In this document: positions 7,523-46,977 of the stretch, in pieces
How positions within the stretch are numbered: position 1 is the first letter of the stretch
Layout: the number at the start of each line of letters is the position of its first letter
DNA from: a virus
Virus record (IMG/VR): IMGVR_UViG_3300034954_001721
Length of the DNA stretch: 64,000 nucleotides
Reading direction: 5' to 3' (one strand)
Made by a program: the position numbers and the translations under genes
The notes under the pieces: model-generated
What the model was told of the DNA's origin: nothing
Databases searched by the model: none
What the model saw: only the letters and a program-made list of their open reading frames with translations

Positions 7523-7524
7523 TT

Positions 7525-7597
7525 GCCTCCGTAGCTCAGCTGGTAGAGCAGGTCTTTTGTAAAGATCAGGTCGCAGGTTCAAGTCCTGTCAGAGGCT
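7525..7597 (+). tRNA. tRNA-Thr(TGT)
   Basis: Cloverleaf; loop TTTGTAA; C6:A67 acceptor mismatch. Confidence 0.92.
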
Positions 7598-7625
7598 TGA
7601 CAATCTGAAATGATTGTTATATTAT
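7597..7625 (+). promoter_or_regulatory. Sigma70-like early promoter
   Basis: TTGACA-N17-TATTAT upstream of tRNA-Gly. Confidence 0.7.
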
Positions 7626-7673
7626 AGGTTCATCCGTGTGAAGGATGTGTCTGGGGATTAATCCCCACCACCT

Positions 7674-7745
7674 GCGGGTGTAGTTCAGTGGTAGAACGTC
7701 AGCCTTCCAAGCTGAATGTCGTCGGTTCGAACCCGATCTCCCGCT
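7674..7745 (+). tRNA. tRNA-Gly(TCC)
   Basis: Cloverleaf; loop CTTCCAA; T6:T67 mismatch. Confidence 0.92.
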
Positions 7746-7780
7746 TTCTGGTTAACCGTAAAACCAGAATTTATACCTAG

Positions 7781-7788
7781 TATAAATA
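7781..7788 (+). promoter_or_regulatory. T4 late promoter TATAAATA
   Basis: Exact consensus, upstream of the OMP-like gene. Confidence 0.65.
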
Positions 7789-7893
7789 TTACACCTTTTG
7801 AAGATTTACAACAAAAGGTAACAACAGGGAGTTGTCGATTCCCTTTCCATCTGCGGGTAATCATTCCGCAAGTAAAAAACGAGGTTTAAACAA

Positions 7894-8259
7894 ATGATCA
7901 AATCTGTATTCGCAGCAACTGCTGCTCTGTCTATGTCCGCAGGCGCTGCCCTTGCAGGTCCCTACGTCAACGTGGAAACGAATGCCGGTTGGGTAGGCGA
8001 CGATTATTCCGGAGCAACCACAGATCTTCATATTGGCTATGAAGGAGAAGTTGGTGCTGCCGCATACTACGTCCAGGCGGGTCCAGCAGTCGTTTCTGTT
8101 GATGGTCAAGAGTCCGAAACTCAATTCTCTGGTAAAGCAGGTCTTGGCGTTCCCGTTAGCGATGCTATCGGAGTGTATGGAGAAGTTTCCTTCCTGACTG
8201 CAGACGATAAGGATGATCTGGGTCTTGGCGGTAAGTTGGGTGTTAAGTACAACTTCTGA
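7894..8259 (+). CDS. Small outer-membrane beta-barrel-like protein
   Basis: Signal peptide ending AALA; alternating amphipathic strands; C-terminal GVKYNF beta-signal; GAGG SD. Confidence 0.75.
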   Translation: MIKSVFAATAALSMSAGAALAGPYVNVETNAGWVGDDYSGATTDLHIGYEGEVGAAAYYVQAGPAVVSVDGQESETQFSGKAGLGVPVSDAIGVYGEVSFLTADDKDDLGLGGKLGVKYNF

Positions 8260-8292
8260 TCCCATTTTTCTAGTTAATAAGGATATCCTAAC

Positions 8293-8318
8293 AACCTCCC
8301 TAAAGGGAGGTTTTTTTA
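8293..8318 (+). terminator. Rho-independent terminator
   Basis: AACCTCCC-TAAA-GGGAGGTT followed by T run. Confidence 0.85.
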
Positions 8319-8371
8319 TGGTTTAATTTGGATTAACCATGTTAAAATAGTAAGGTCATTTGACAAAACCG

Positions 8372-8566
8372 ATGAAAAAGTATTTAAGAGCATTCTTAAA
8401 TCCAATAACTCAGATTAATATAATGATTCTGGGTTTTTTAATACTTGTTCAGGTTATACATACCAGAGCACATCATACTCTAGAGACTGATGTCCATGGG
8501 CATGTTCATAGAGCACTAAAAGCAAACCCAGAAATGGCACGATCTACCTGCTACGAACTTGACTAA
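8372..8566 (+). CDS. Small TM hypothetical protein
   Basis: MKKYLRAF... with a hydrophobic helix. Confidence 0.55.
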   Translation: MKKYLRAFLNPITQINIMILGFLILVQVIHTRAHHTLETDVHGHVHRALKANPEMARSTCYELD

Positions 8567-8805
8567 TGAAGAAGAAAGTAAAAAAAATGATGGAATGGTT
8601 CTATGATGAATCATATAGAGGAGGACAAAACATTGCAGAATGCAAAAATCTTTATGATCTTGTAGAAAAACTGCAGTGTCGTCTAGAAGATGTGGAAAAT
8701 GATTATCTGCACTTATGTCGTGAAATTGCTATACATCGACGTGAAATTGGTAGATTACAAGGTATACTAGATACGTTAGAATCTCGGTTACCTGATGAAG
8801 ATTAA
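8566..8805 (+). CDS. Hypothetical coiled-coil protein
   Basis: TAATG coupling. Confidence 0.55.
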   Translation: MKKKVKKMMEWFYDESYRGGQNIAECKNLYDLVEKLQCRLEDVENDYLHLCREIAIHRREIGRLQGILDTLESRLPDED

Positions 8806-8980
8806 TCTGTGGTATTCAAAGAGTATGTCTCAGTGGCGTTGGACACTTGTGGAAGAGTGGAGAAACGGCGTCACTAAGACCGAACAACACTCTGGACAAC
8901 AACCGATGTTGCGTGATGCAATGGAAGATGTTGCCAAAACTGTAGAGTATATGTTAAAATATGAGGAGAAGGGCGATTAG
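8795..8980 (+). CDS. Hypothetical cyanophage protein
   Basis: MKINLWYSKSMSQWRWTL; stop lies inside tRNA-Val. Confidence 0.6.
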   Translation: MKINLWYSKSMSQWRWTLVEEWRNGVTKTEQHSGQQPMLRDAMEDVAKTVEYMLKYEEKGD

Positions 8981-9042
8981 CGCAGCGGTAGCGCAGCTGC
9001 TTTACACGCAGTTGGTCATTGGTTCGAATCCGATATTGCCCA
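8971..9042 (+). tRNA. tRNA-Val(TAC)
   Basis: GGGCGAT/ATTGCCC acceptor; loop TTTACAC. Confidence 0.93.
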
Positions 9043-9778: not shown

Positions 9779-9901
9779 ATGAACGCTGACGAAAAAAGAG
9801 AGTTCTATAAAGGACTCCGCGAGCGCATCAAACAACTTAGAATAGAACACTTATTTGAAGAACCTTGTCCTTTATATGAGGATACAGATGAAGAAACTTA
9901 A
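9779..9901 (+). CDS. 40 aa hypothetical peptide (not in ORF track)
   Basis: MNADEKREFYKGLRERIKQLRIEHLFEEPCPLYEDTDEET fills the gap exactly. Confidence 0.5.
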   Translation: MNADEKREFYKGLRERIKQLRIEHLFEEPCPLYEDTDEET

Positions 9902-10493
9902 TACGTTTACATTAAATATCACAGTTGCTATCTTAAACTTCCTGTATCAAGGTCGTCACTTTCAGAGATTCTGGGTACTTGAGGAGATAGCACGGGCACC
10001 ATACTTTGCTTTTTTAAGTGTGCTTCACTTACGTGAATCATTAGGTTTGCGTGGACAGTGGCACATTTATTTGATGAAACAGCACTTCGAGCAATCGGTC
10101 AATGAAACAGAACATCTGGAAATCATGGAATCTAGGGGCGGTAATGCTTATTGGATTGATCGCTTTTTTGCCAGACACCTCGTACTTGTCTATTATTGGA
10201 TCAACGTGGTTTATTATTGGTTATCTCCTCGCGCTGCTTACCATCTCTCCTACGAAATAGAACTTCATGCTATGGAAACCTATGCAAAGTATCTTGCAGA
10301 GATTGATGGATCTGATATAGATATATGCAGTGTGATGAATGATGAATTGCATCACGCTCAAGAATTGTATGAGGCAATGAATATCATTGATCCTGATCAT
10401 TTAACAGTAAGAGAGGAAAATCGCAAACCATTTCCACCGGATATAAGTGATTTAAGTTCAGTAAAATTAGTATCATCAGTAGAACAACAATGA
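9888..10493 (+). CDS. ptoX: Plastoquinol terminal oxidase (PTOX)
   Basis: RFWVLEEIARAPYF, NETEHL, EIELHA, DELHH di-iron motifs. Confidence 0.93.
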   Translation: MKKLNTFTLNITVAILNFLYQGRHFQRFWVLEEIARAPYFAFLSVLHLRESLGLRGQWHIYLMKQHFEQSVNETEHLEIMESRGGNAYWIDRFFARHLVLVYYWINVVYYWLSPRAAYHLSYEIELHAMETYAKYLAEIDGSDIDICSVMNDELHHAQELYEAMNIIDPDHLTVREENRKPFPPDISDLSSVKLVSSVEQQ

Positions 10494-11536
10494 AAGTAGG
10501 AATTATTGGTTTAGGTAGAATGGGTGAGGGTATGTCCCGCCGTATGATGAAAGAAGGTATTGAAGTTTGGGGTTATAGACGAAATTATGAAAAAGCACAA
10601 GAGGCATTTGAAAAGGGATACGTAAGTGGAGTTGCTACCACTTTAGAAAATCTTGTTCAGATAGTTAAAACAGATGGAAAGATGTATACCAGTGGTGGTG
10701 AAGTTCCTGGTATTTTTCAACTTGTTATTCCTGCAGAATTAGTAGAGGACACATTAAATGAGTTACTACCATTACTTGGCGACGGGGATATTATTATTGA
10801 TCATGGCAATAGCAACTTTAAGGATTCTAGACGGAGAGCAGAAAGGCTTGCTAAGTTGGGTATCCAATATCTTGACTGCGGTACTAGTGGTGGAGTTTAC
10901 GGTCTGGAGCGTGGATACTGTCTTATGGTTGGTGGTGCAACTGGAGCAGTATCTGTCTGTGCCCCCATTTTCAGGGCACTTGCACCTGGTATTACCGCTG
11001 CAACCCGCACAGACCCCCGCACTAGGGCAACCAGTGCTGAGTATGGTTGGTTACACTGCGGAGGTCCTGGAGCAGGTCATTTCGTAAAAATGGTTCACAA
11101 CGGAGTCGAATATGGAATCATGCAAGCGTATGCAGAAGGGTTTAATATTCTCCATCATGGTAATCTTGGTTCCAAATATGTTAAGGAAGGGGATGCTGAG
11201 GTTGCTCCGATGGAAAATCCAGCAGACTATCAATATGATGTTGATGTTGTTGAAGTTGCTGAGCTCTGGCGTCGTGGTTCTGTTGTTGGTAGCTGGTTAC
11301 TTGACCTTACCGCTGATGTATTACGGCATGACCATGACCTTAGCAAGTTCGATGGGGGAGTATCAGACTCTGGTGAGGGTCGTTGGACTCTCCACGCTGC
11401 TGTGGATCTTGGTGTACCCACACCTGTTATCTCTGCCGCACTATTTGAACGGTTTAATTCTCGCAGACTGGGGGAGTTTGGAAACAAAATCTTGAACGGA
11501 ATGCGTTACATGTTCGGAGGTCATCATGTTCGCTAA
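10490..11536 (+). CDS. gnd: 6-phosphogluconate dehydrogenase
   Basis: IGLGRMG, GHFVKMVHNGVEYG, DSGEGRW, MRYMFGGH. Confidence 0.97.
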   Translation: MKVGIIGLGRMGEGMSRRMMKEGIEVWGYRRNYEKAQEAFEKGYVSGVATTLENLVQIVKTDGKMYTSGGEVPGIFQLVIPAELVEDTLNELLPLLGDGDIIIDHGNSNFKDSRRRAERLAKLGIQYLDCGTSGGVYGLERGYCLMVGGATGAVSVCAPIFRALAPGITAATRTDPRTRATSAEYGWLHCGGPGAGHFVKMVHNGVEYGIMQAYAEGFNILHHGNLGSKYVKEGDAEVAPMENPADYQYDVDVVEVAELWRRGSVVGSWLLDLTADVLRHDHDLSKFDGGVSDSGEGRWTLHAAVDLGVPTPVISAALFERFNSRRLGEFGNKILNGMRYMFGGHHVR

Positions 11537-11654
11537 TGTACTTCTTTGGATAGCAGTTCCCTTTGTATGCACAACTGTATTCTTTGGGTTCTTCAAAGGA
11601 GAAAATGTCTATTATGAATCAGATAAGTATGACGGAAATGGAACCGCACACTAG
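11526..11654 (+). CDS. ndhP: NdhP-like small subunit of NDH-1L (42 aa; not in ORF track)
   Basis: MFANVLLWIAVPFVCTTVFFGFFKGENVYYESDKYDGNGTAH: single TM with P, then FFG...YY-SD-Y-GNG-AH C-terminus typical of NdhP. Confidence 0.8.
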   Translation: MFANVLLWIAVPFVCTTVFFGFFKGENVYYESDKYDGNGTAH

Positions 11655-12972
11655 TGGAATAGTGATCTTCGGAGCAACGGGAGACCTTTGTAAGAAGAAA
11701 CTAATACCAGCACTTTACAATCTTTGGAAGAAAGATTTACTTCCAGAAAATTTTTTAATTACTGGTTCTGCTAGAAGAGAACCAACACCAGAGCAGTGGA
11801 AACAAAGTTTGGGTGATTATCCATCCGAATTCTTGTGGCATTTAGATTATGTTTCTACAGATCTTTCAATGCCAAACACTCTGATGCATTTGCCAAATGA
11901 TCTGGAAGACACGACTTATTTCTTATCTGTCCCACCAGAAAGGTATGAAAATGCAATCATCAATCTTAAAGAAGCTGGTTTCTTGGATGACCCTGAGCAC
12001 TCCCGAGTGGTTATCGAGAAACCCTTTGGGCACAATTATAAATCTGCTGATCATTTACAGTCAGTGGTGGAGCGACATCTACGCGAAAAGCAAGTCTATC
12101 GCATTGATCATTATCTCGGCAAAGATACTGTTAATAACATCCTTGCCACCCGCTTTAGCAATATTTTATTGGAACCACTTTGGAATAGGCAGTACATAGA
12201 AGAAGTGCAAATCTTTGCAACTGAAAAAATCAGTTGTGATGGTCGATCACAATACTATGAGACTGCTGGTGCAGTTCGTGATATGTTGCAGAACCATATT
12301 CTTCAGGTTCTTGCACTAATCGCTATGGAACCACCTTGCAAAATGGATGCAAGAGAAGTTCGTCGTGAAAAGACAAAAGTTCTTGCTGCTACTCGTTTAG
12401 GGGAGGATACGATCTTTGGACAATACGAACAATACCGCACTGAAGAGGGTGTTGATCCTCACAGTAGCACTCCTACCTTCGTTGCTGGTTCTCTTTATGT
12501 CGATAACTGGCGTTGGGAAGGAGTTCCTTTTCGCGTTCTGACAGGTAAATGTATGCCTTATGGGTGTGTAGAAGTTGTAATTAAATTTAAATCACCACCA
12601 AGACAGTTGTTTGATGGTGAAACAAACGATCGCATTGTGATAAGACTTCAACCACATGCACATTTGGATATGAGAATTGATATTAAAGCGCCAGGATTAA
12701 CAGATCATGTTGAAACTGCAACACTAACTCACAGATATCCTGATTGGTTGGGTGTTGATGGATATGAGAAACTTCTTTTTGATGCTATTAATGATAATCA
12801 ATCTAATTTTGTTCACGCTGATGAAGTGATGGAGTCTTGGCGTATTGTTGAGGATTTACTTTGTACTGGTGATGAGTGTACTATTTGTACTACTCCTCAC
12901 ATTTACTCTTCTGGTAGTTGGGGACCTAGAGAAGAGGTAAATAAAATTACTGATTGGGATTTTCCAGCATGA
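11629..12972 (+). CDS. zwf: Glucose-6-phosphate dehydrogenase
   Basis: IFGATGDL, EKPFG, RIDHYLGK; start at 11629 or 11638. Confidence 0.97.
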   Translation: MTEMEPHTSGIVIFGATGDLCKKKLIPALYNLWKKDLLPENFLITGSARREPTPEQWKQSLGDYPSEFLWHLDYVSTDLSMPNTLMHLPNDLEDTTYFLSVPPERYENAIINLKEAGFLDDPEHSRVVIEKPFGHNYKSADHLQSVVERHLREKQVYRIDHYLGKDTVNNILATRFSNILLEPLWNRQYIEEVQIFATEKISCDGRSQYYETAGAVRDMLQNHILQVLALIAMEPPCKMDAREVRREKTKVLAATRLGEDTIFGQYEQYRTEEGVDPHSSTPTFVAGSLYVDNWRWEGVPFRVLTGKCMPYGCVEVVIKFKSPPRQLFDGETNDRIVIRLQPHAHLDMRIDIKAPGLTDHVETATLTHRYPDWLGVDGYEKLLFDAINDNQSNFVHADEVMESWRIVEDLLCTGDECTICTTPHIYSSGSWGPREEVNKITDWDFPA

Positions 12973-13503: not shown

Positions 13504-13577
13504 CGGGGTGTAGCGCAGTTTGGTAGCGCGGTGCTTTTGGGAAGCATAGGTCGCAGGTTCAAATCCTGTCTCCCCGA
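13504..13577 (+). tRNA. tRNA-Pro(TGG)
   Basis: CGGGGTG acceptor; loop TTTGGGA; T6:T67 mismatch. Confidence 0.92.
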
Positions 13578-14697: not shown

Positions 14698-14900
14698 TCG
14701 CGGAGTGACTATAAACCTGCCCTGGTCGGTGAAGGATCCCCTTCAATCCCGAAGTTTCCTAGTTCTTAAAACTAGGTGGTGGAGTCATTAGACCCTCTTA
14801 GAGTTTCTTGTTTCTTTCAAAAGCAAGTGGTGCGGATGGGGTTTTATACTCCCGCTCTGTTTCTTGCTTCAGAACAAAGAGCAAGTGGCGTGCATGTAAA
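14697..14900 (+). ncRNA. manA/wcaG-type cyanophage cis-regulatory RNA with three GTTTC-hairpin-TGGYG modules
   Basis: Repeats at 14751-14786, 14801-14840 and 14857-14896 upstream of gmd-fcl; which Rfam family is not verified. Confidence 0.7.
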
Positions 14901-18453: not shown

Positions 18454-20004
18454 ATGAAAGTCGTTATTCCAATGTCTGGCATGAGCAGCAGGTTTGTTGC
18501 TGCTGGATATGAAATCCCAAAGTATCTGATAGAAATTGATGGTAAAAAAGTCATTGAACATATTGTTGAATTGTACCCAAAAGATTCTGACTTTGTTTTT
18601 ATTATCAATGATAAGCATGAGAAAGAAACCAATATTGTTGAAGTTTTAGAGGGTATTGCTGAAAACAAAGAGATTGTTACTATTCCTCGCCATAAGAAAG
18701 GTCCAGTATTTTCTGTATCTCAGTTTGAAGATTTGATTGATGATGATGAGGAAGTCATTGTTAATTACTGTGACTTCTCAATCTTTTGGGACTATAGGCA
18801 TTTCAAGGGATATGTTGATGATGTAGAATGTGATGGGTGTGTAATCTGTTATACGGGGTTCCATCCTCATATGTTGGGTAGTGATAACTATGCTTTCTGT
18901 CAGACTGATGATGAAAATAAAATTTTAGAGGTTAGGGAGAAGCAACCATTCACAGACGATAAGATGTCTGAGTTTGCTTCTGCTGGTAACTACTATTTTA
19001 GGAAAGGAAGTTATATCAAGAAATACTTTAAGCAGTTAATGGATGAAGATATTAATATCAACGGTGAATACTATGTGAGTCTGATTTATAATCTGATGGT
19101 TCAGGATAATCTGGACAATCGTGTTTATGAGGTCCCTTATATGTTGCAGTGGGGAACTCCTGGTGATCTTGATATTTACAACAGTTGGTCCAACTATTAT
19201 TGTAAAGCACTGGAGGGGCAGAAAGAAGTTAAGATAGAGAACTGTACACTTGCACTTCCTATGGCAGGTGCTGGTAGTCGTTTTGCCAAGCAGGGATATG
19301 CACATCCTAAACCATTTATTCCTGTGAATGGGAAGAATATGGTTGACCAGGCAGTTCGTTGTCTTCCCAAGACTGACAGAACCATCTATGCTTGTTTGAA
19401 GGGACATCAAGCACCTGGTGATGATGTTGTATGGATTGATGAGGTTCTAGAGGGTCAAGCTTGTACTACAGAAAAGATTGTAGAACAATGTGAGGATGGT
19501 TCAATTCTTGTATCTGCGTGTGATAATGGTGTCTTTTATGATGCAGATAAGTTCTTAGAGTTGGTAAATGATGAAAGTAATGATATAATAGTATGGACCT
19601 ATAGAAATAATTATACCAGTCAACTTCAACCAAATGCATATTCATGGGTAAACTGTGATGAAGATGGTAATGTTTCTAGTGTTGATGTAAAAGATTTCAA
19701 AGGAACTAATCCTGTAGAAGAGTTTGCAATTACAGGAACAATGTTCTTCCGATCAAGAGAAATTTTTGCACAGACTCTGAGTTCTCTTTATGATCATGAT
19801 GTAAGAACAAATGGTGAGTTCTATGTTGATAGTATGCTTAATGAAGCAATCAATATGGGATTCAAAGTAAAAAACTTTGAGATTGATAATTATATTTGTT
19901 GGGGAACACCTAACGATTTAAAGACTTATCAATACTGGCAAAGATTCTTTAATAAAGTTGATTGGCACGATTATTGTTATGCAGAAGACTACTTTACAAA
20001 ATAA
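18454..20004 (+). CDS. Tandem two-domain sugar nucleotidyltransferase (BcbE-like)
   Basis: IPMSGMSSRF...PKYL and LPMAGAGSRF...PKPF; each domain has NGE(Y/F)YV and WGTP. Confidence 0.85.
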   Translation: MKVVIPMSGMSSRFVAAGYEIPKYLIEIDGKKVIEHIVELYPKDSDFVFIINDKHEKETNIVEVLEGIAENKEIVTIPRHKKGPVFSVSQFEDLIDDDEEVIVNYCDFSIFWDYRHFKGYVDDVECDGCVICYTGFHPHMLGSDNYAFCQTDDENKILEVREKQPFTDDKMSEFASAGNYYFRKGSYIKKYFKQLMDEDININGEYYVSLIYNLMVQDNLDNRVYEVPYMLQWGTPGDLDIYNSWSNYYCKALEGQKEVKIENCTLALPMAGAGSRFAKQGYAHPKPFIPVNGKNMVDQAVRCLPKTDRTIYACLKGHQAPGDDVVWIDEVLEGQACTTEKIVEQCEDGSILVSACDNGVFYDADKFLELVNDESNDIIVWTYRNNYTSQLQPNAYSWVNCDEDGNVSSVDVKDFKGTNPVEEFAITGTMFFRSREIFAQTLSSLYDHDVRTNGEFYVDSMLNEAINMGFKVKNFEIDNYICWGTPNDLKTYQYWQRFFNKVDWHDYCYAEDYFTK

Positions 20005-35936: not shown

Positions 35937-36828
35937 AAGTCTGGTAACAGGTGGTGCTGGTTTTATTGGGTCTAATCTTGTAGACTATCTTGTTGAACTG
36001 GGGCACGAAGTTGTCGTTATTGATAATGAGAGTGCTGAGTCTAATGAACAATTTTACTGGAACGAAAAGGCACAGAAGTGTGTCTATGATATTCGTGACT
36101 ATGAGAACACCCGTCCTCTGTATGAAGGTGTGGATTATGTTTTCCACCTTGCTGCAGAGTCTAGGATTCAACCAGCAATTCAGAATCCTATCAATGCAAT
36201 TAGTCTGAACTCTGTTGGAACCTGTACAGTTCTTCAGTGTGCTCGTGAGGCAGGTGTGAAGCGTGTTATCTATTCTTCCACGTCATCTGCATATGGTATG
36301 AATGAAGCACCTAATGTTGAGACTCAACCTGATGACTGTCTGAATCCTTACTCAGTTTCTAAGTCAAATGGTGAGAAACTGTGCAAGATGTATAATGATC
36401 TGTTTGGTCTGAAGACAGTATCGTTCCGTTATTTTAATGTTTATGGTGAGCGTCAACCTATCAGAGGGCAGTATGCACCTGTTGTGGGTATCTTCTTGCG
36501 TCAACGTGCTGCAGGTGAAGCATTGACGATTGTGGGTGATGGGGAGCAGCGTAGGGACTTTACGCACGTCAGTGATGTTGTTCAGGCAAATTTTCTTGCC
36601 GCAACTACTGAAGTTGATGAAAGTGCTTTCGGACAACTTTACAACATTGGCAATGGTAAGAACTATTCGGTGAATGAACTTGCTGCAATGATTTCTGATA
36701 ACACCACTAACATTCCACCACGTATTGGTGAAGCAAGAATTTCCCTTGCAAACAATAACAAGATGAAGACCACTTTTGGTTGGAATCCACAAGTTAAACT
36801 GAGTGATTGGGTTTCTGCACAGAAATGA
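35929..36828 (+). CDS. NAD-dependent nucleotide-sugar epimerase/dehydratase
   Basis: TGGAGFIGS, YSVSK, RYFNVYG. Confidence 0.9.
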   Translation: MTKSLVTGGAGFIGSNLVDYLVELGHEVVVIDNESAESNEQFYWNEKAQKCVYDIRDYENTRPLYEGVDYVFHLAAESRIQPAIQNPINAISLNSVGTCTVLQCAREAGVKRVIYSSTSSAYGMNEAPNVETQPDDCLNPYSVSKSNGEKLCKMYNDLFGLKTVSFRYFNVYGERQPIRGQYAPVVGIFLRQRAAGEALTIVGDGEQRRDFTHVSDVVQANFLAATTEVDESAFGQLYNIGNGKNYSVNELAAMISDNTTNIPPRIGEARISLANNNKMKTTFGWNPQVKLSDWVSAQK

Positions 36829-37598
36829 TTAATATTTTTACTTCCGTTGTTAATCGTCCAGAGTTTGTAGAGATTCAAAAGAAAACATTTGATAAGTTTC
36901 TGAAGGAAAAGTATCAGTTTCACGTTGTTGATGATTCTCTTGATGAATCTATCTCTGCTGAATTTAAAAAAGTTTGTGAGGAAAATGGAATCAACTACTA
37001 TAGAAAGCCTCAAGGTAATCGTAGTTTGAATGAGAGTCGTTGGAATGGTGCTCGTCATGCATGTGAGACCATTCAATGGACTTATGATACGCTAATTAAA
37101 ACAAAGTATTGTAATGACCTGGTTCTATTTCTAGACTCTGATATGTTCTTGCTAGACCATTTTAGTATGGTCGATCATATGGATGATCAAATTATGTCTG
37201 GACTCAAGCAAGTCAGAGGTAAAATTGAGTATATGTGGAATGGAATTATGTTCTTCAATATGCTTAAGATTATGGCGATTGATCCTGACCTTAATTTCTC
37301 TGATGGCGTTGTTGAAGGTGAGATGACTGATATTGGAGGACATCTCTATTACTACTTCAAGAAGAATAATATTTCTTTTAAAGATACTGGGGTAGATTAT
37401 CCAACTCATTTCAATGACTTGGACTTGCAAAAAGATACAGATGGGTTTAATATGGAACTCCATCTTGATGGTAATTTCTTACACTATCGTGCTGGCACAA
37501 ACTGGCATACTCAAAGTAGTTGGAAAGGAAACAAAGACCCTCTTGCACGTAAAGAGGAAGCATTCAATATGATTATTAAGGAAACTTTGAATGGATAA
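36825..37598 (+). CDS. Putative GT-A glycosyltransferase
   Basis: VVDD, FLDSDMF. Confidence 0.55.
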   Translation: MINIFTSVVNRPEFVEIQKKTFDKFLKEKYQFHVVDDSLDESISAEFKKVCEENGINYYRKPQGNRSLNESRWNGARHACETIQWTYDTLIKTKYCNDLVLFLDSDMFLLDHFSMVDHMDDQIMSGLKQVRGKIEYMWNGIMFFNMLKIMAIDPDLNFSDGVVEGEMTDIGGHLYYYFKKNNISFKDTGVDYPTHFNDLDLQKDTDGFNMELHLDGNFLHYRAGTNWHTQSSWKGNKDPLARKEEAFNMIIKETLNG

Positions 37599-38382
37599 GA
37601 ACAAAGCAGCACACAAACTCAAAAATCTTCCACCAATCTATTGTATTAACCTTGATGATAAACCTGAAAGGTGGAAGTTTATGGAAGACCAGTTCAAGTA
37701 CTGGCAAGTAGAAAACTATACTCGTGTGTCTGCCTATGATGGTAGAGGTGATAATGACTTAGGAGAAATTCTGAAAGGGAGATATCCAGACAATATGACT
37801 TCTGGTGAGGTCGGTTGTACCACATCTCACCTCAAGGCGATTAAAATGTTTTTGGAAACAGACGCGCCCTGTGCTTTAATGATGGAGGATGATTGTGACA
37901 TATCTACCGCATTTCATTGGGGATTCACTTGGAAAGATTTTTATGCCAAGATTCCATATGATTATGATGTAATTCAATTAGCAATCATCAATCCTGCACA
38001 GATCACAGTTCAGATGCATCGTAGATTTGTCAATGACTTTTCTACTGCTTGTTATATGATTACTAGGCATCACGCAGAGAAACTTGTAAAACTTCATTGC
38101 CGTGGTGATAAGTATAAACTTGATCAGGGTGTCAAACCTCGTGCAGTTGCTGATGATCTGATTTACAACTCAGGTAATACTTTTGCTATGCCTTTGTTCC
38201 TATATCAGATTGCTTTGGGATCTGATATTCACGATATTCATATCAATGTATTCCATAAGAGTAGTTATGAGGGTCTCTGGCAGTTCTGGAGAAATCAAGC
38301 AGCAGACATTGAAAACTGGAATGAAATGTTTGATTACAACCCATATGCAGGAAGATTGCCACCTGGTTTTGAAGGCAAGTAA
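37591..38382 (+). CDS. GT25 glycosyltransferase
   Basis: CINLDDKPER, GEVGCTTSH, MEDD. Confidence 0.85.
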   Translation: MDKNKAAHKLKNLPPIYCINLDDKPERWKFMEDQFKYWQVENYTRVSAYDGRGDNDLGEILKGRYPDNMTSGEVGCTTSHLKAIKMFLETDAPCALMMEDDCDISTAFHWGFTWKDFYAKIPYDYDVIQLAIINPAQITVQMHRRFVNDFSTACYMITRHHAEKLVKLHCRGDKYKLDQGVKPRAVADDLIYNSGNTFAMPLFLYQIALGSDIHDIHINVFHKSSYEGLWQFWRNQAADIENWNEMFDYNPYAGRLPPGFEGK

Positions 38383-38398
38383 GTATAAACCACTACAC

Positions 38399-38435
38399 AG
38401 CATCTCTTGACAGGGGTGCTTTTTTACTATATAAT
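38399..38435 (+). promoter_or_regulatory. Terminator hairpin with the -35 box in its loop, plus early promoter
   Basis: AGCATCTC-TTGACA-GGGGTGCT plus T run; TTGACA-N17-TATAAT. Confidence 0.75.
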
Positions 38436-38462
38436 ATGTAAAGATTTACAACGAATTGTAAA

Positions 38463-38666
38463 ATGACTGTTACAACCAATGAGTATGGGCAACAGAATCT
38501 GTTTGCCAAAGAACCCCAAATGGTTGTTGAAAGCTACAACCGTAAGGGTCTTGAGTCTCCACAGCAGTATGCCGAGACCTATAATGGTCGCTGGGCAATG
38601 ATGGGTATCATCTCTGGATTCATCTCTTATGCTGCTACTGGCAAGTTTTTCTTCGGTATCGTTTGA
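38463..38666 (+). CDS. hli: High-light inducible protein
   Basis: AETYNGRWAMMG chlorophyll-binding motif; TG..FFG end. Confidence 0.9.
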   Translation: MTVTTNEYGQQNLFAKEPQMVVESYNRKGLESPQQYAETYNGRWAMMGIISGFISYAATGKFFFGIV

Positions 38667-38752
38667 TGGCGGAGACTGTATTTACGGTTACTTCAATTGC
38701 ATTCCTAGTTTTGCTAGGATATTCTGTACAACAACTTGCTGAAACTTATTGA
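38666..38752 (+). CDS. 28 aa TM peptide
   Basis: MAETVFTVTSIAFLVLLGYSVQQLAETY; TGATG coupled at both ends. Confidence 0.55.
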   Translation: MAETVFTVTSIAFLVLLGYSVQQLAETY

Positions 38753-38970
38753 TGGAAAACTCCCTTCTTGAAATTCTGACTTATTATGTGATTGGTGGTG
38801 CCCTTCTGATTGGTGCTCCAGGAGTATTCTTTTTTGTTGTATTCATGTCCGCCCTTCAAAATACGAAAGGGCGTATGGTTGGATACAAAGATCACAAAAC
38901 CTATGGTGACATTTCATCTTATGAAAACTCACCTACAGATAACACAAAATTCTATCTTACACTAAAATAA
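38752..38970 (+). CDS. Small TM hypothetical protein
   Basis: Hydrophobic helix followed by LQNTKGRMVGY. Confidence 0.6.
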   Translation: MENSLLEILTYYVIGGALLIGAPGVFFFVVFMSALQNTKGRMVGYKDHKTYGDISSYENSPTDNTKFYLTLK

Positions 38971-39080
38971 TGTTTAACGAAAAAGCAGAAAAACTTAATG
39001 GTCGCGCAGCAATGGTTGGTTTCGTAGCCGCCGTTGGATCCTATCTCGCCACTGGTCAAGTAATTCCAGGTTTATGGTGA
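38970..39080 (+). CDS. hli: High-light inducible protein (36 aa; not in ORF track)
   Basis: MFNEKAEKLNGRAAMVGFVAAVGSYLATGQVIPGLW. Confidence 0.92.
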   Translation: MFNEKAEKLNGRAAMVGFVAAVGSYLATGQVIPGLW

Positions 39081-39214
39081 ACGAAATGTTACTCATAGCA
39101 GCTTCCATGGTAGGAGGGTTCCTCTTTGCCGCCTTATTGACTGATGGAAATGTTGATGATGACGACGATTATGGTGGAGGAATGATGATTCCTGCCTCAT
39201 CATCGAATACTTGA
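39077..39214 (+). CDS. Small TM peptide with DDDDDxGGGMMIP tail
   Basis: GTGA overlap; hydrophobic helix followed by acidic run. Confidence 0.55.
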   Translation: MNEMLLIAASMVGGFLFAALLTDGNVDDDDDYGGGMMIPASSSNT

Positions 39215-39239
39215 CAAGGTATCAAATCTTCTATATAAT
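39211..39239 (+). promoter_or_regulatory. Sigma70-like early promoter
   Basis: Perfect TTGACA-N17-TATAAT. Confidence 0.8.
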
Positions 39240-39260
39240 TCTATCTCATACACAAATTAA

Positions 39261-39551
<291 letters not shown>

Positions 39552-39584
39552 ATACATAAGTTTATATCGTAAGTATTCAATAAT

Positions 39585-39737
39585 ATGCCCAATTCAGACG
39601 CACTGTGGCAGGATATACAAAAACTCGACGATATGTACGAAGAGTTACTATGGCATCCTGATGATAAACTGGTCTTCACACATGATGGTAAGCGAATCAT
39701 CATATACAATAAAACAATAGAAGATAATCAATCTTGA
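39585..39737 (+). CDS. 50 aa hypothetical protein
   Basis: MPNSDALWQD...LLWHPDDKL. Confidence 0.5.
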   Translation: MPNSDALWQDIQKLDDMYEELLWHPDDKLVFTHDGKRIIIYNKTIEDNQS

Positions 39738-39750
39738 TTCCCACACAAAA

Positions 39751-39802
39751 TTGACGGTTAAATACAAAAGAATATAATATAAGGGCAGCAATGCCCTTTT
39801 TT
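39751..39802 (+). promoter_or_regulatory. Promoter plus terminator-like hairpin ahead of glgP
   Basis: TTGACG-N16-TATAAT, then AAGGGC-AGCAAT-GCCCTT-TTTT. Confidence 0.6.
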
Positions 39803-39807
39803 AATAG

Positions 39808-42198
39808 ATGCTTAAAACTAATATTGGTGATAGAGTAAAGGAAAGACTTCTCTACACCTTGGGCAAACGCTCAGAAAATGCCTCAGCACACGATGTGTAT
39901 ACGGCATTGTGCTATGCAGTTAGAGATAAGATGGTGGAGAACCATCTGGTTGAGAAGTCTCATAGAAAAGAGATTGCATATCTTTCAGCAGAATTTTTGA
40001 TTGGTCCACAGTTAAGCAATAATCTCCTCAACTTAGATATCCGCAAAGAAGCAGCAGAAGCAGTTGGTAAGTACGGATATACTCTGGATGAGATCTTAGA
40101 ACTGTCAGTTGAACCTGGACTTGGTAATGGTGGTCTGGGTAGACTCGCTGCTTGTTATATGGAATCTCTGGCAACTTTGAGAGTGCCAGCAACTGGATAT
40201 GGTATCAGATATAAGTATGGTATTTTCAAACAGACCATCAAGGACAATCAGCAGGTAGAGGTTACTGATAACTGGTTGCACGGAGATTGGCCCTGGGAAC
40301 TTTGTTATCCTGATGAATCAGTAGAAGTTGGATTTGGTGGTAAGGTTGAGCACTACGAACTAGAAGAGGGTGAGTATCGAGTTCGTTGGGTTCCTGCTAC
40401 TCACGTTGTTGCTGTTCCTTACGATGTCTTGCAAGCAGGATACAAGGTTGATAGTTGTGCAAAGATCAGACTCTGGAGAGCAGATGCTACAGATGTATTT
40501 GATTTCTATGCTTTCAATATTGGTGACTACCTTGGGTCAGTTGAACAGAGCGTAACTTCTGAAACTATCTCTAAGGTTTTGTATCCCAATGACGGTACAG
40601 ATCAGGGCAAGGAACTCAGACTGAAGCAGCAGTTCTTCTTTGTAAGTGCTTCACTTCAGGATATGCTTCGCAGTATGAAAGAACGTGCATTGCCTCTTGA
40701 GGACTTTCATAAGCACTTTCAAGTTCAGTTGAATGATACGCACCCATCTGTTGCTGTAGCAGAACTGATGAGGTTGCTTGTGGATGAGCACCACCTGGAC
40801 TGGGATCTGGCGTGGGACATTACAAGTAAGTCAATTGCTTACACGAATCATACATTGTTGCCAGAGGCACTAGAGAAGTGGAGTCTGAAGTTGTTTGAGA
40901 AACTTCTGCCTAGACACCTGGAAATCATTTATGAAATCAACTCTCGTTTCTTGCAGATTGTGAGAATGAGATATCCTGGTGATGATGAAACTCTGAGCAA
41001 ACTATCCATCATTGATGAAACTGGTAGTAAGTCAATTCGTATGGCAAACCTTGCTACAGTCGGTTCTCATCACGTCAATGGTGTTGCTGCACTCCACTCA
41101 GATTTGATTACTAAGAATTTGATGCCAGAGTTCTATGATCTTTGGCCACACAAATTCACCAATGTAACTAATGGTGTGACACCACGCCGTTGGTTGGCAG
41201 ATTCTAATCCAGCACTCGCAGAAGTTCTTGATGAATATGCTGGACCAGAATGGGCAACTGATATGGATATTCTCAGGAATCTAGAGAATCATATTGATGA
41301 TAATCATCTGCTTGAGAAGATTGATGCTACCAAGCTCATAGGTAAGCATAAACTGTCTCAATACATACAGAACACACTTGGCATTTCTGTTGATCCGTCA
41401 AGTATGTTTGATGTGCAGGTGAAGAGAATTCATGAGTACAAACGACAGCATCTCCTTGCTTTATGGATTGTGTCTCGGTACATGTATATCAAAAATCATA
41501 AAGACGATTACGTTGTACCTCGCACAGTAATCTTTGGTGGTAAGGCAGCACCTGGTTACTATATGGCGAAAGAGATTATTCGCTTTATCTGTAATGTTGC
41601 TGAGACGATCAACTCTGATCCTGATATGGATGGGAAGTTGCGTGTGGTCTTCTTGCCAAACTACAGTGTGAAGTTGGGGCAGAAAGTATATCCTGCTGCT
41701 GATCTTTCTGAGCAAATCTCTACTGCAGGTAAGGAGGCATCCGGTACTGGTAATATGAAGTTCCAGATGAATGGTGCTTTGACTATTGGAACACTTGATG
41801 GTGCCAACGTTGAAATCCGTGATCTGGTTGGGGAAGAGAACTTCTTTCTCTTTGGTAATACTGAAGATGAGATTGCTGCTCTATGGGCAAATGGATATGA
41901 TCCAAAAGAATATATGAGTGCTGGTCTTTTTGAAGCAATTGAACTTATCAAATCTGGTCACTTCTCAAACGGAAATAAGAACTCATTCAATAATTTGGTG
42001 AGTAATATTATGGATAGAGATCCTTTCTGTGTCTGTGCAGACTTTGCTGACTACTGTCGTGCCCAAACTGTAGTGGACACCACTTGGGGTAATAGAGAAG
42101 AGTGGAACCGTAAGTCTCTTATGAACATTGCTAGGTCTGGATTCTTCTCTTCTGATCGGTCCATTCAGGATTACTGCGATACGATTTGGAAAATTTGA
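39808..42198 (+). CDS. glgP: Glycogen/alpha-glucan phosphorylase (GT35)
   Basis: GLGNGGLGRLAAC, QLNDTHP, YTNHTLLPEALE, KRIHEYKRQ, PLP-lysine motif EASGTGNMKF. Confidence 0.97.
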   Translation: MLKTNIGDRVKERLLYTLGKRSENASAHDVYTALCYAVRDKMVENHLVEKSHRKEIAYLSAEFLIGPQLSNNLLNLDIRKEAAEAVGKYGYTLDEILELSVEPGLGNGGLGRLAACYMESLATLRVPATGYGIRYKYGIFKQTIKDNQQVEVTDNWLHGDWPWELCYPDESVEVGFGGKVEHYELEEGEYRVRWVPATHVVAVPYDVLQAGYKVDSCAKIRLWRADATDVFDFYAFNIGDYLGSVEQSVTSETISKVLYPNDGTDQGKELRLKQQFFFVSASLQDMLRSMKERALPLEDFHKHFQVQLNDTHPSVAVAELMRLLVDEHHLDWDLAWDITSKSIAYTNHTLLPEALEKWSLKLFEKLLPRHLEIIYEINSRFLQIVRMRYPGDDETLSKLSIIDETGSKSIRMANLATVGSHHVNGVAALHSDLITKNLMPEFYDLWPHKFTNVTNGVTPRRWLADSNPALAEVLDEYAGPEWATDMDILRNLENHIDDNHLLEKIDATKLIGKHKLSQYIQNTLGISVDPSSMFDVQVKRIHEYKRQHLLALWIVSRYMYIKNHKDDYVVPRTVIFGGKAAPGYYMAKEIIRFICNVAETINSDPDMDGKLRVVFLPNYSVKLGQKVYPAADLSEQISTAGKEASGTGNMKFQMNGALTIGTLDGANVEIRDLVGEENFFLFGNTEDEIAALWANGYDPKEYMSAGLFEAIELIKSGHFSNGNKNSFNNLVSNIMDRDPFCVCADFADYCRAQTVVDTTWGNREEWNRKSLMNIARSGFFSSDRSIQDYCDTIWKI

Positions 42199-42207
42199 AA
42201 AAGGGGG

Positions 42208-42236
42208 TTGACAGATACGGAGAACCGAAGTATTAT
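42208..42236 (+). promoter_or_regulatory. psbA promoter
   Basis: TTGACA-N17-TATTAT. Confidence 0.8.
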
Positions 42237-42269
42237 ACATAATGTAGAACGTTACGAAACGTAACACTC

Positions 42270-42380
42270 AAACACCCCACAAACCAAGACCTCTAGGGTG
42301 TATAAAAACGTCTTTCATATCCTCTCTAAGGGTGAGAGGAAATAGTAACTCCACCATTTCCCTGATGGTCTTACTTTTTT
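42270..42380 (+). ncRNA. PhotoRC-II-like structured leader upstream of psbA
   Basis: Hairpins TCCTCTC/GAGAGGA, ACCAT/ATGGT, AGTAA/TTACT; position matches the known cyanophage psbA leader motif. Confidence 0.7.
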
Positions 42381-42390
42381 GTTTAAAACA

Positions 42391-43470
42391 ATGGCTTCAA
42401 CTCTTTCAAGACAACAATCACAATCCTCGTGGGAAAATTTCTGCGAGTGGGTAACATCCACCAATAACCGTCTCTATGTCGGTTGGTTCGGCGTTCTGAT
42501 GATTCCAACTCTGTTGGCAGCAACTATCTGCTTCATCGTCGCCTTCATCGCTGCTCCCCCTGTGGACATCGATGGCATCCGTGAACCCGTCGCTGGTTCA
42601 CTCATGTATGGTAACAACATCATCTCTGGTGCGGTTGTTCCCTCTTCCAACGCAATTGGACTCCACTTCTATCCCATCTGGGAAGCCGCATCGCTCGACG
42701 AGTGGCTGTATAACGGTGGTCCTTTCCAACTCGTAGTCTTCCACTTCCTGATCGGCATCTATGCCTATATGGGTCGTGAGTGGGAACTTTCCTATCGTTT
42801 GGGTATGCGCCCCTGGATCTGCGTTGCTTACAGCGCACCTGTCGCTGCTGCTTCTGCTGTATTCCTCGTCTATCCTTTCGGTCAAGGTAGTTTCTCCGAT
42901 GCTATGCCTCTTGGTATCTCTGGTACTTTTAACTATATGCTTGTATTCCAAGCAGAACACAATATCCTTATGCATCCGTTCCACATGCTCGGTGTTGCTG
43001 GGGTATTCGGTGGATCTCTGTTCTCTGCTATGCATGGAAGTTTGGTTACTTCTTCGCTGGTTCGTGAAACCACGGAAACTGAGTCCCAGAACTATGGTTA
43101 TAAGTTCGGTCAAGAAGAAGAGACATACAACATCGTCGCCGCTCACGGTTACTTCGGTCGCCTGATCTTCCAATATGCATCCTTTAACAACTCACGCTCT
43201 TTGCACTTCTTCCTCGCTGCTTGGCCTGTTATTGGAATCTGGTTCACTGCCCTTGGTGTTTCTACCATGGCATTCAATCTCAATGGTTTCAACTTCAACC
43301 AGTCTATCCTTGATAACCAAGGACAAGTTCTGAATACTTGGGCAGATGTTCTGAACCGTGCAGGTCTGGGTATGGAAGTGATGCACGAGCGCAACGCTCA
43401 CAATTTCCCTCTCGACCTTGCTGCTGCTGAGTCAACTCCTGTTGCACTCACCGCACCTAGCATCGGTTGA
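42391..43470 (+). CDS. psbA: Photosystem II D1 protein (no intron)
   Basis: NRLYVGWFG...[13 protein letters not shown]. Confidence 0.99.
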
Positions 43471-43488
43471 TATTTAACTCACATACAA

Positions 43489-43519
43489 AAAGTAGGGGAC
43501 TTTGGTCCCCTATTTTTTT
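43489..43519 (+). terminator. Rho-independent terminator
   Basis: TAGGGGAC-TTTG-GTCCCCTA plus T run. Confidence 0.85.
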
Positions 43520-43537
43520 CTCCTTGTATGTTAAGAT

Positions 43538-45988: not shown

Positions 45989-46312
45989 ATGAAGTTTTTC
46001 TTCGCACTTCTTGCTACACTCTTTCTTGCTACACCTGCTTGGGCTGTAGATGTTCAAATGGGATCAAATGGTAACTTGATTTTTGACCCAGCAGATGTTA
46101 CAATATCCGCAGGTGAGTCAGTTCACTTTGTGAATAATATGCTCCCTCCACATAATGTGATCGTAGAGGATCGTCCTGATCTTGCTCATGAATCACTCGC
46201 TATGCTTCCTGGTGAAGAGTTTGATATCACCTTTAATGATCCAGGTGATTACACCTATTGGTGTGCTCCTCATAAAGGCGCTGGTATGATTGGTACCGTA
46301 CACGTTGAATGA
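45989..46312 (+). CDS. petE: Plastocyanin
   Basis: Signal ending AWA; PHNV; YWCAPHKGAGMIG. Confidence 0.96.
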   Translation: MKFFFALLATLFLATPAWAVDVQMGSNGNLIFDPADVTISAGESVHFVNNMLPPHNVIVEDRPDLAHESLAMLPGEEFDITFNDPGDYTYWCAPHKGAGMIGTVHVE

Positions 46313-46332
46313 TGCAGTATACGCACAATTAC

Positions 46333-46977
46333 ATGAAAATTTTTCTGGATACAGCAGACACCGAAGTTATTAATAATGCCTATCGAAGTGGATTGGTAGA
46401 TGGTGTCACTACCAACCCCACACTCATTATGAAGAGTGGTCGCAATCCTGAAGAGGTCTATCAGGAAATCAAAGATATTGGTATCACTGATATCAGTATG
46501 GAAGTGGTTGGCGATGAGGGTGAAATGTATCGTGAAGGCAAGCGTCTTTATGAGAAGTTTGGGAATGTTTGTACCGTCAAAGTTCCTTGCACCCGTGAAG
46601 GACTTGCTGTATGTAAGTCTCTTTCTGACCAGAATATCAAGGTCAATGTAACCCTTATCTTCAGTGCTGCTCAGGCAGTGCTTGCTGCTAAGGCAGGTGC
46701 TACCTATGTTTCACCATTCGTTGGTCGTCTTGATGACCAGTCTGTTGCTGGTCTTGAGGTTGTGCGTTCTATTTCTGAACTCTATCGTATTCATGGAGTG
46801 AGGACTCAGGTTCTTGCTGCTTCTATCCGAAGTGTTCAGCGTGCTGTTCGCTCTTGGTATAATGGTGCAGAAATTTGTACTATGCCACCAAAGGTCTTTG
46901 AACAGATGTATGACCACATCCTTACGGATAAAGGTCTGGAAATCTTTGATAAAGACTGGGCAGCAGTTAAGAAATAA
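46333..46977 (+). CDS. talC: Transaldolase (TalC)
   Basis: FLDTAD, GVTTNPT, VKVP, YVSPFVGRLDD. Confidence 0.96.
   Translation: MKIFLDTADTEVINNAYRSGLVDGVTTNPTLIMKSGRNPEEVYQEIKDIGITDISMEVVGDEGEMYREGKRLYEKFGNVCTVKVPCTREGLAVCKSLSDQNIKVNVTLIFSAAQAVLAAKAGATYVSPFVGRLDDQSVAGLEVVRSISELYRIHGVRTQVLAASIRSVQRAVRSWYNGAEICTMPPKVFEQMYDHILTDKGLEIFDKDWAAVKK

Follow-up and report, generated by a model that had tools for sequence, protein, structure and literature searches.

A conserved glycogen phosphorylase gene in large T4-like cyanomyoviruses, probably feeding host glycogen into the pentose phosphate pathway

Introduction

Cyanophage carbon AMGs (cp12, talC, zwf and gnd) are a textbook case of how viruses reprogram metabolism in the ocean, and to our knowledge the source of the hexose phosphate that they handle has so far been left open. 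A glycogen phosphorylase gene, glgP, lying close to psbA in the virus record IMGVR_UViG_3300034954_001721 raises the question of whether some cyanophages draw on the host glycogen reserve, and whether the gene belongs to the phage at all. An earlier note on this DNA had read it as a full-length enzyme that completes a route from glycogen to the oxidative pentose phosphate pathway, and had suggested a phylogeny with the host enzymes and a check for chimeric assembly with host DNA. Here, we analyzed glgP in the whole stretch of 64,000 nucleotides, hereafter the window, and in its relatives. We put at roughly 0.7 the probability of the account as a whole, in which glgP is a functional phage alpha-glucan phosphorylase AMG that was captured once, was retained, and feeds host glycogen into the pentose phosphate pathway.

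Results

The glgP gene (39808..42198, + strand) starts with ATG and encodes a 796 aa GT35 alpha-glucan (glycogen) phosphorylase of the phage-clade form. The product matches the Pfam profile PF00343 end to end (profile positions 3–713 of 713, 1034 bits, E=0), and with TIGR02093, whose cut-off is 553, it reached 1126 bits. Six motifs were located in the product, namely GGLGRL (position 108), LNDTHP (308), TNHT (346), TNGVTPRRW (454), KRIHEYKRQ (539), and EASGTGNMK (643), the last of which contains the PLP Schiff-base lysine, Lys651, aligned with PLP-Lys680 of the rabbit enzyme. Motifs matching the rabbit phosphate- and glucosyl-binding residues (K568/R569/H571/Y573/K574, H377, N484 and D339/H341) are likewise present in the alignment, a solved alpha-glucan phosphorylase was matched with 961 bits, and the PLP lysine and all six motifs are kept in 81/81 phage-clade sequences. 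The enzyme is intact with all its catalytic and PLP motifs, as the earlier note had claimed, and glgP is an intact GT35 alpha-glucan phosphorylase gene in a T4-like cyanomyovirus. A pseudogene reading was rejected. The product scored below the equivalog cut-offs for E. coli GlgP (NCBIfam NF011562, 886.6 vs 1546) and MalP (NF011561, 917.5 vs 1273), so that a preference for glycogen or for maltodextrin is not transferable from the E. coli enzymes. The GT35 family is structurally well solved at ~50–60% identity, and the GC content of glgP is ~42%, slightly above the window mean.

Upstream of glgP lie petF, encoding a 2Fe-2S ferredoxin (39261..39551, +; PF00111, E=4e-24), and a 50 aa DUF7191 ORF (39585..39737, +; PF23821, E=1e-8), which directly precedes the glgP promoter-like site and was found also on the independent contig L221. 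The downstream neighbor is psbA, encoding D1 (42391..43470, +), whose leader contains a PhotoRC-II RNA motif (42262..42353, +; RF01717, 75.5 bits vs a gathering score of 39). The position between petF and psbA given in the earlier note was thereby confirmed, with the addition of the DUF7191 ORF, which had gone unmentioned. A sigma-70-like promoter-like site (39751..39778, +; TTGACG, 16 nt, TATAAT) agrees with the consensus at 11/12 positions and may serve glgP; it is conserved in the contigs L002, L005, and L222, which diverge farther upstream. It is followed by a 7-bp GC-rich hairpin (39781–39798) that forms, with a T-run, an element at 39781..39804 (+), 3 nt before the glgP ATG. The folding energy of this hairpin (dG −10.7 kcal/mol, z −1.43) is weak taken alone, the hairpin is kept in relatives, and the cultured cyanophage S-SCSM2R has another stem sequence and a T-run in the same place. 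Both elements had been described before as an own promoter and a hairpin, and both proved to be conserved in relatives at this locus. The hairpin with its T-run is a probable terminator of transcripts arriving from upstream; a transcript starting ~7 nt past the −10 box would begin inside the 5′ arm, so that promoter-derived RNA would form no hairpin. A psbA promoter-like site (42208..42236, +; TTGACA, 17 nt, TATTAT) is found 10 nt past the glgP stop, and no terminator was detected in the interval between glgP and psbA.

Both glgP junctions were reproduced in independent JGI contigs from other samples, at 100% and 99.87% identity, and the phage glgP clade comprises at least 216 IMG/VR contigs that are 72–100% identical. 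The neighbors of glgP in relatives are nrdA/B, regA, hsp20, gp43, and psbA. Its commonest setting, at 77/81 loci, is a replication/nucleotide module (regA-glgP-hsp20-gp43 or nrdAB-glgP), and at 77/81 loci sugar genes are absent beside it. Copies mostly follow regA, to which glgP is coupled in relatives, or nrdB, and the petF-psbA site with an own promoter is a minority arrangement. The gp43 of one contig with the regA context is 82–85% identical to those of P-SSM2, S-SRM01, and S-SKS1, well-studied large cyanomyoviruses that are without glgP, and the GC content of glgP follows that of the phage.

Among cultured cyanophages, a single record, S-SCSM2R, carries glgP. Its ORF260 (PQ898602, annotated as 'carbohydrate phosphorylase') belongs to the same clade, with 86% amino-acid identity to the window GlgP, and likewise lies between petF and psbA with a hairpin and T-run before the start codon, but it has a peroxiredoxin gene upstream and ~7.5 kb of GT24, Kds, and 2OG-oxygenase genes between the phosphorylase and psbA. 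The S-SCSM2R paper leaves the phosphorylase gene undiscussed (PMC12801897), and our literature search found no paper describing glgP as a cyanophage AMG. Hence, glgP is common in uncultured cyanophages and almost undescribed. The earlier view that it is not a common known AMG stands as regards the one cultured record and the literature, and has to be amended for its frequency in IMG/VR and for the annotation already present in S-SCSM2R.

The GlgP sequences of 28 small cyanobacterial genomes are 63–66% identical to phage GlgP, and those of other cyanobacteria and bacteria at most 58%. In both trees (quick searches with SH-aLRT support values), support was 100 for the phage clade, 94/96 for the picocyanobacterial clade, and 100 for the pair. 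The phylogeny thus gave a distinct, monophyletic phage clade that is sister to the GlgP of Prochlorococcus and marine Synechococcus (~65% identity), and each Prochlorococcus-sized genome had one GT35 match. The host and phage enzymes have identical catalytic and PLP motifs, and their identity of ~65% extends across the entire core, which is interrupted by just three small internal indels, whereas the phage GlgP is set apart by a phage-like GC content and a separate long stem branch. These sequence relationships indicate a single old capture from a picocyanobacterial host lineage. With dN/dS values of 0.05–0.11, glgP is kept under strong purifying selection in the phage lineage. A recent pick-up from the host was rejected. 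A non-cyanobacterial origin was also rejected; a pattern scan had given only Proteobacteria at 53–56%, which a direct phylum scan corrected. In a search of representative sequences, with clusters collapsed at 50%, the best match reached 52% and the representatives were spread over scattered phyla, so that this search says nothing on the origin of glgP. As is expected of an AMG, glgP is reproducibly present in bona fide phage genomes and is a host-derived metabolic gene under purifying selection.

All cellular relatives possess an N-terminal leader (~24–29 aa) and a C-terminal tail (10–27 aa) that are absent from the phage clade. In the hosts, the leader of ~24–29 residues (...DLRLPTPGCYADPERAG...) and the tail of 10–18 residues (...PMPVEITCDV...) each contain a conserved Cys, whereas the phage GlgP is without either segment. 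The window GlgP stops 2 residues past the conserved ...IW, and 77/81 phage sequences have tails of 2–5 residues. Synechocystis GlgP1, also a cyanobacterial GT35 enzyme, has its regulatory cysteines in a C-terminal extension (10.1101/2022.11.21.517384), whereas the phage enzyme has no extension; the paired-Cys motif by which redox-switched cyanobacterial GlgP1 is recognized in that extension is accordingly lacking in the window GlgP. The CPDGQC motif of the Synechocystis GlgP1 type was present in L200, L203, and L211, and the picocyanobacterial host tail (EITC) differs from the Synechocystis extension and is accompanied by a leader Cys.

The window also contains gnd (6-phosphogluconate dehydrogenase; 10490..11536, +), zwf (glucose-6-phosphate dehydrogenase; 11563..12972, +), and talC (transaldolase; 46309..46977, +; PF00923, E=4e-52), in agreement with the earlier note, and the two complete genomes searched both carry glgP together with these three genes and cp12. 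A search of the window and of both complete relatives turned up no phosphoglucomutase and no debranching enzyme; the route would still need host enzymes, and it is extended, not completed as had been claimed. The sugar-nucleotide/glycosyltransferase island reported previously is real. It spans ~14.9–38.4 kb, ends ~1.4 kb upstream of glgP, and includes gmd, a GDP-fucose synthase-like gene, GT11, GT61, GT47, and GT25 genes, a GHMP kinase gene, and a double nucleotidyltransferase gene (18454–20004). A role of glgP in supplying this island is weakly indicated because most loci of the clade have no sugar genes beside it.

Discussion

The integrity of the gene, its residence in phages, its phylogeny, selection and truncations, and its co-occurrence with other carbon genes were directly observed. 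As to substrate, flux direction, and timing, we infer that in the lineage concerned, that of large (~240–250 kb) T4-like cyanomyoviruses, phage GlgP most likely converts host glycogen to glucose-1-phosphate during infection. Host phosphoglucomutase would then yield glucose-6-phosphate, which would enter the oxidative pentose phosphate pathway, itself strengthened by the phage proteins Zwf, Gnd, TalC, and CP12, and the resulting NADPH and ribose-5-phosphate would be used in phage dNTP synthesis. GlgP by itself halts near glycogen branch points. Mobilizing glycogen might also permit infection in the dark, as the earlier note had proposed. A review lists host GlgP among the few host proteins still made in S-SM1 infection (PMC10452541). 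The classic carbon AMGs cp12, talC, zwf, and gnd are likewise host-derived or host-like central-carbon genes of T4-like cyanophages and share with glgP the proposed logic of directing carbon into the pentose phosphate pathway; in comparison, glgP would act upstream, on a storage polymer, and among cultured isolates it is present in one only.

Glucose-1-phosphate could instead serve chiefly as a direct nucleotide-sugar precursor for the glycosylation island, and not as pentose phosphate fuel. The closeness of the island to glgP in the window, the GT24, KdsB, and KdsA genes directly after the S-SCSM2R phosphorylase, and the fact that NDP-glucose can be made from glucose-1-phosphate without the phosphoglucomutase that we did not find in the phages would all fit such a role. 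We nevertheless consider it unlikely, given that the prevailing setting of glgP is among replication/nucleotide genes with no adjoining sugar genes, that the recognizable chemistry of the island begins at GDP-mannose and not at glucose-1-phosphate, and that the island has no clear glucose-1-phosphate nucleotidyltransferase, the NTP_transferase match being weak (E=2.5e-5). It is quite improbable that the retained enzyme uses an alpha-1,4-glucan other than glycogen (maltodextrins or short primers), runs toward synthesis, or acts non-catalytically: among GT35 phosphorylases, its sister alone was found in Prochlorococcus-sized genomes (one match each), which belong to glycogen storers, its catalytic residues are fully conserved, and phosphorolysis is normally favored by a cellular phosphate level that is high compared with glucose-1-phosphate. 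These points outweigh the failure of equivalog-level assignment for both GlgP and MalP, the absence of the terminal segments that every cellular relative has, and the reversibility of the GT35 reaction.

An origin of glgP from host DNA that was mis-assembled onto phage DNA or mis-binned is effectively refuted, and the chimerism considered in the earlier note was not borne out. The hosts are indeed the nearest cellular relatives of phage GlgP, and the gene has a GC content slightly above the window mean, but the protein is only ~65% identical to that of any host, the two junctions were seen again in independent contigs of other samples, the complete genome of a cultured isolate carries glgP in synteny, more than 200 viral contigs have it beside nrdAB, regA, or gp43, and the phage sequences form one monophyletic clade and are all truncated.

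With its missing termini, phage GlgP is a minimal core that may escape host control. In a bolder version, the leader Cys and tail Cys of the host enzyme would act as a regulatory, possibly redox, clamp that confines glycogen breakdown to the night, and the phage would have shed both to burn glycogen at any hour with a deregulated, 'always-on' enzyme. We regard this version as rather doubtful. The activity of Synechocystis GlgP1 fell upon deletion of its C-terminal region (preprint 10.1101/2022.11.21.517384), so that tail loss need not equal deregulation.

A widespread and conserved phage glycogen phosphorylase points to the host glycogen reserve as the source of the hexose phosphate handled by the cyanophage carbon AMGs. 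Infection success would thereby be tied to the diel carbon storage of the host, and with it to time of day, light, and nutrient status, and glgP would add a term to carbon-flow models for infected Prochlorococcus and Synechococcus. The existence of S-SCSM2R, which carries glgP, and of close relatives lacking it makes the idea directly testable, and the truncated phage enzyme offers a natural experiment on the regulation of picocyanobacterial GlgP. If the 'always-on' reading were true, glycogen would be a major, previously unrecognized source of carbon and reductant from which large cyanomyoviruses of an abundant and mostly uncultured lineage make their dNTPs.

Phage GlgP carries a full catalytic set and is conserved across its clade

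In the window, glgP is a single long open reading frame with an ATG start (39808–42198, + strand) encoding 796 aa. The protein covered positions 3–713 of 713 in Pfam PF00343 (E=0), that is, the whole profile, and scored 1126 bits against NCBIfam TIGR02093 (cut-off 553); its PHROGs family, phrog_23782, has no stated function. Among solved structures, it gave 961 bits to 9wvu, an 855-aa alpha-1,4-glucan phosphorylase, and ~786 bits to the rabbit muscle and E. coli enzymes. Structure alignment and motif scanning located GGLGRL at residue 108 (rabbit G134–L139), LNDTHP at 308 (D339, H341), TNHT at 346 (H377), TNGVTPRRW at 454 (N484), KRIHEYKRQ at 539 (K568, R569, H571, Y573, K574) and EASGTGNMK at 643, with Lys651 equivalent to the rabbit PLP-Lys680. 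Judged by sequence, the full catalytic set is present, in agreement with the earlier note, which had described an intact enzyme with catalytic and PLP motifs. All six motifs were intact in 81/81 phage-clade sequences in the motif scan. Pairwise dN/dS within this clade was 0.05–0.11, including two pairs of loci with synonymous divergence below saturation (L001–L005, dS 0.98, dN/dS 0.059; L020–L025, dS 0.79, dN/dS 0.10). The phage protein is thus maintained as an enzyme.

glgP resides in phage DNA in several genomic contexts

A chimera with host DNA, which the earlier note had raised as a danger to its reading, was effectively refuted, as both glgP junctions recur in independent contigs and an isolate genome. 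JGI contigs from two other samples spanned both junctions, one 100% identical across window positions 36808–43034 (sample 3300035069) and one 99.87% identical across 39648–43531 (sample 3300035107), and in the complete 244-kb genome of the isolate Synechococcus phage S-SCSM2R, a gene with 86% identity likewise sits between petF and psbA. A large protein database contains well over 100 clusters (90%) of proteins of 791–801 aa, several of them on contigs of 236–251 kb. The gene therefore resides in phage DNA, and its GC content tracks that of each phage locus (33–43%), not that of the hosts.

Three arrangements were found: regA-glgP-hsp20(-gp43 DNA polymerase) in 51/81 loci, nrdA/nrdB-glgP in 26/81, and petF/DUF7191-glgP-psbA, as in the window, in 3/81. 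The gp43 of a regA-context contig was 82–85% identical to those of P-SSM2, P-SSM5, S-SRM01 and S-SKS1, and an nrdB-context contig also carried psbA, psbD, zwf and talC. The gp43 sequences closest to that of the regA-context phage, up to 84.5%, came from the single-cell amplified genomes 'Marine virus AG-345-*' (MH3197xx), several of them partial records, in which GlgP tblastn found no match. In the glgP-carrying IMG/VR contig of locus L013, talC and zwf are each divided into two neighboring fragments that lie in different open frames (~10.8–11.4 kb and 19.6–20.5 kb), possibly frameshifts, assembly errors or decaying genes.

Neighborhood and putative transcription signals

The earlier placement of glgP between petF and psbA was largely borne out, although it had passed over a 50-aa DUF7191 ORF (39585–39737, +) between petF (39261–39551, +) and glgP. 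A PhotoRC-II RNA (42262–42353, +) lies between the psbA promoter-like site and psbA. As also reported earlier, gnd (10490–11536), zwf (11563–12972) and talC (46309–46977) share the window, which encodes petE as well. Immediately 5' of gnd and zwf is a gene for a plastoquinol terminal oxidase-like protein (PF01786 AOX, 9855–10493), which shares its last 4 nt with the start of gnd, and six clustered tRNA genes lie upstream of this block (6945–9042 and 13504–13577). A glycosylation island (~14.9–38.4 kb) encodes GDP-mannose dehydratase, epimerases, GT11, GT61, GT47, GT25, a GHMP kinase and a double nucleotidyltransferase. Its first gene, for GDP-mannose 4,6-dehydratase, is directly preceded by a wcaG RNA motif (RF01761, 90.5 bits, 14799–14899).

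Upstream of glgP, a sigma-70-type promoter-like site (39751–39778, +; TTGACG, 16 nt, TATAAT; 11/12 consensus positions) is followed by a 7-bp hairpin (39781–39798, +) and a T-run ending 3 nt before the ATG. Taken alone, the hairpin was unremarkable (dG −10.7 kcal/mol, z = −1.43), and the region was not enriched in promoter-like sites overall relative to shuffles. The pair gains credibility from its conservation among relatives: three related loci (L002, L005, L222) retain both elements while sequence farther upstream diverges, and S-SCSM2R has another stem sequence with a T-run at the equivalent place. The earlier assignment of an own promoter, here a promoter-like site, and hairpin holds for these loci and not for most relatives, in which glgP has no separate promoter and its start overlaps the regA end or lies within a few bases of it. 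RNA begun ~7 nt past the −10 box would start within the 5' arm of the hairpin, so that a terminator here could act on upstream transcripts only; the layout could block upstream read-through yet spare promoter-derived RNA. No terminator-like site was found between glgP and the psbA promoter-like site, and transcription from glgP into psbA is therefore possible. Near-perfect sigma-70-type promoter-like sites, two of them 12/12, occur just 5' of four auxiliary metabolic gene (AMG) cassettes: hli (38407–38435), petF (39211–39239), glgP and psbA (42208–42236). This suggests a series of host-like genes, each promoted independently.

Phage GlgP is sister to picocyanobacterial GlgP

Early scans were misleading. 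A peptide-pattern scan of species genomes gave only Proteobacteria (53–56% identity) and suggested a non-cyanobacterial source, an exhaustive search of 50% representatives gave a best match of 52% and scattered phyla, and PLSDB gave Burkholderia-group, Nostoc and Acaryochloris sequences at 54–56%. The origin was settled when 401 cyanobacterial genomes were scanned directly: identity was 63–66% (1137–1202 bits) in 28 small genomes (1.6–2.9 Mb; locus GC ~35–40% or 55–65%) and at most 58% in the remainder. From size and GC, we infer that the 28 are Prochlorococcus and marine Synechococcus/Cyanobium.

In the phylogeny that the earlier note had called for, two maximum-likelihood trees agreed (68 rows, LG+G4; 39 rows, LG+C20+F+G4 PMSF), with SH-aLRT as the sole branch support. 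The phage clade (SH-aLRT 100) and the picocyanobacterial clade (94/96) were each monophyletic and were sisters (100), nested among cyanobacterial GlgPs. The simplest reading is that the gene was captured once, long ago, from the host lineage and later spread among T4-like cyanophages, in which it occupies at least three genomic positions. A second, divergent paralogue (L213–L216) in some 2.7–3.0 Mb high-GC genomes, Cyanobium/Synechococcus-sized, formed the next outgroup on a long branch.

Phage GlgP lacks both host termini

Window GlgP and one host enzyme share 65.5% identity over 797 columns with three gap openings, and their differences concentrate at both termini. Host proteins have a leader of ~24–29 residues (...DLRLPTPGCYADPERAG...) and, after the conserved ...IW, a tail of 10–18 residues (...PMPVEITCDV...), whereas the window protein lacks the leader and ends 2 residues past ...IW. 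In 77/81 phage sequences the tail is 2–5 residues long, compared with 13–27 in hosts, 6–29 in other cyanobacteria and 18–28 in Proteobacteria. Nor could a leader be concealed in phage loci, where the open frame does not extend far enough 5' of the start. Since leader and tail are present in all cellular relatives, their absence in phages is a derived loss, which argues for host-to-phage transfer.

A leader Cys (PTPGC) and a tail Cys (EITC) both occur in 26/28 host loci (L171–L198); one genome (L196) lost both and another the leader Cys only. In Prochlorococcus/Synechococcus GlgP, the two cysteines may represent a regulatory pair not described before. According to a preprint, a C-terminal extension is typical of cyanobacterial GlgPs; in Synechocystis GlgP1 this extension acts as a redox switch, and its deletion lowers activity (10.1101/2022.11.21.517384). 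The GlgP1 switch motif, C-terminal CPDG[QT]C, was seen in three non-picocyanobacterial sequences (L200, L203, L211), in one of two paralogue groups only. It is a tentative and rather doubtful proposal that the picocyanobacterial termini have a regulatory role and that the phage enzyme, without them, is deregulated.

Prevalence and probable role of phage GlgP

Both the enzyme family and AMGs as a concept are already well known. The gene itself bears the labels 'carbohydrate phosphorylase' in one GenBank isolate and 'starch phosphorylase' on JGI contigs, short of the wide prior annotation that the earlier note had considered. The S-SCSM2R paper (PMC12801897) does not mention the gene, a viral-AMG survey reported glgA and not glgP (PMC4053976), and no description of a cyanophage glgP came up in full-text literature searches. 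GlgP tblastn of 50,697 phage records recovered S-SCSM2R as the only clade member. The earlier view that GlgP is not a common AMG agrees with these results and not with IMG/VR, where at least 216 contigs carried relatives (identity ≥72%), next to 274 for zwf and >595 for talC; the scan was crude and pattern-limited, so this comparison is order-of-magnitude only, and the glgP count is relatively fuller because GlgP evolves slowly. On this evidence, glgP is an AMG that is widespread among cyanophages yet undescribed, in a truncated form specific to phages.

The comparisons establish that phage GlgP is a host-derived GT35 enzyme, intact and under selection. It co-occurs with zwf, gnd and talC in the window, and with these and cp12 in the complete genomes of S-SCSM2R and of a 250.6-kb IMG/VR contig (completeness rating, 100%). 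Neither phosphoglucomutase (PF02878) nor an alpha-amylase-family debranching/branching enzyme (PF00128) was found in the window or these two genomes, in searches whose controls responded. The claim that GlgP completes a glycogen-to-pentose-phosphate route was thus overstated: GlgP extends the route upstream, with host enzymes still required.

For the window phage and S-SCSM2R, which have sugar genes next to glgP, it is plausible that glucose-1-phosphate feeds the glycosylation island, a use compatible with a pentose phosphate role. That this is the main role is unlikely, as it leaves unexplained the 77/81 loci without nearby sugar genes, and a search for a glucose-1-phosphate nucleotidyltransferase gave no clear match. 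The window protein scores below the E. coli equivalog cut-offs, and another glucan substrate or reaction direction is conceivable on sequence grounds; we regard this as quite improbable.

A glycogen-to-pentose-phosphate-to-dNTP route is the most likely role. Phage GlgP would release glucose-1-phosphate from host glycogen by phosphorolysis, host phosphoglucomutase would convert it to glucose-6-phosphate, and the phage-boosted oxidative pentose phosphate pathway would yield NADPH and ribose-5-phosphate for dNTP synthesis. According to a review, host GlgP is among the few host proteins that S-SM1-infected WH8102 continues to synthesize (PMC10452541). The usual site of glgP, beside ribonucleotide reductase or in the regA-gp43 replication cluster, fits nucleotide supply and early or middle expression.
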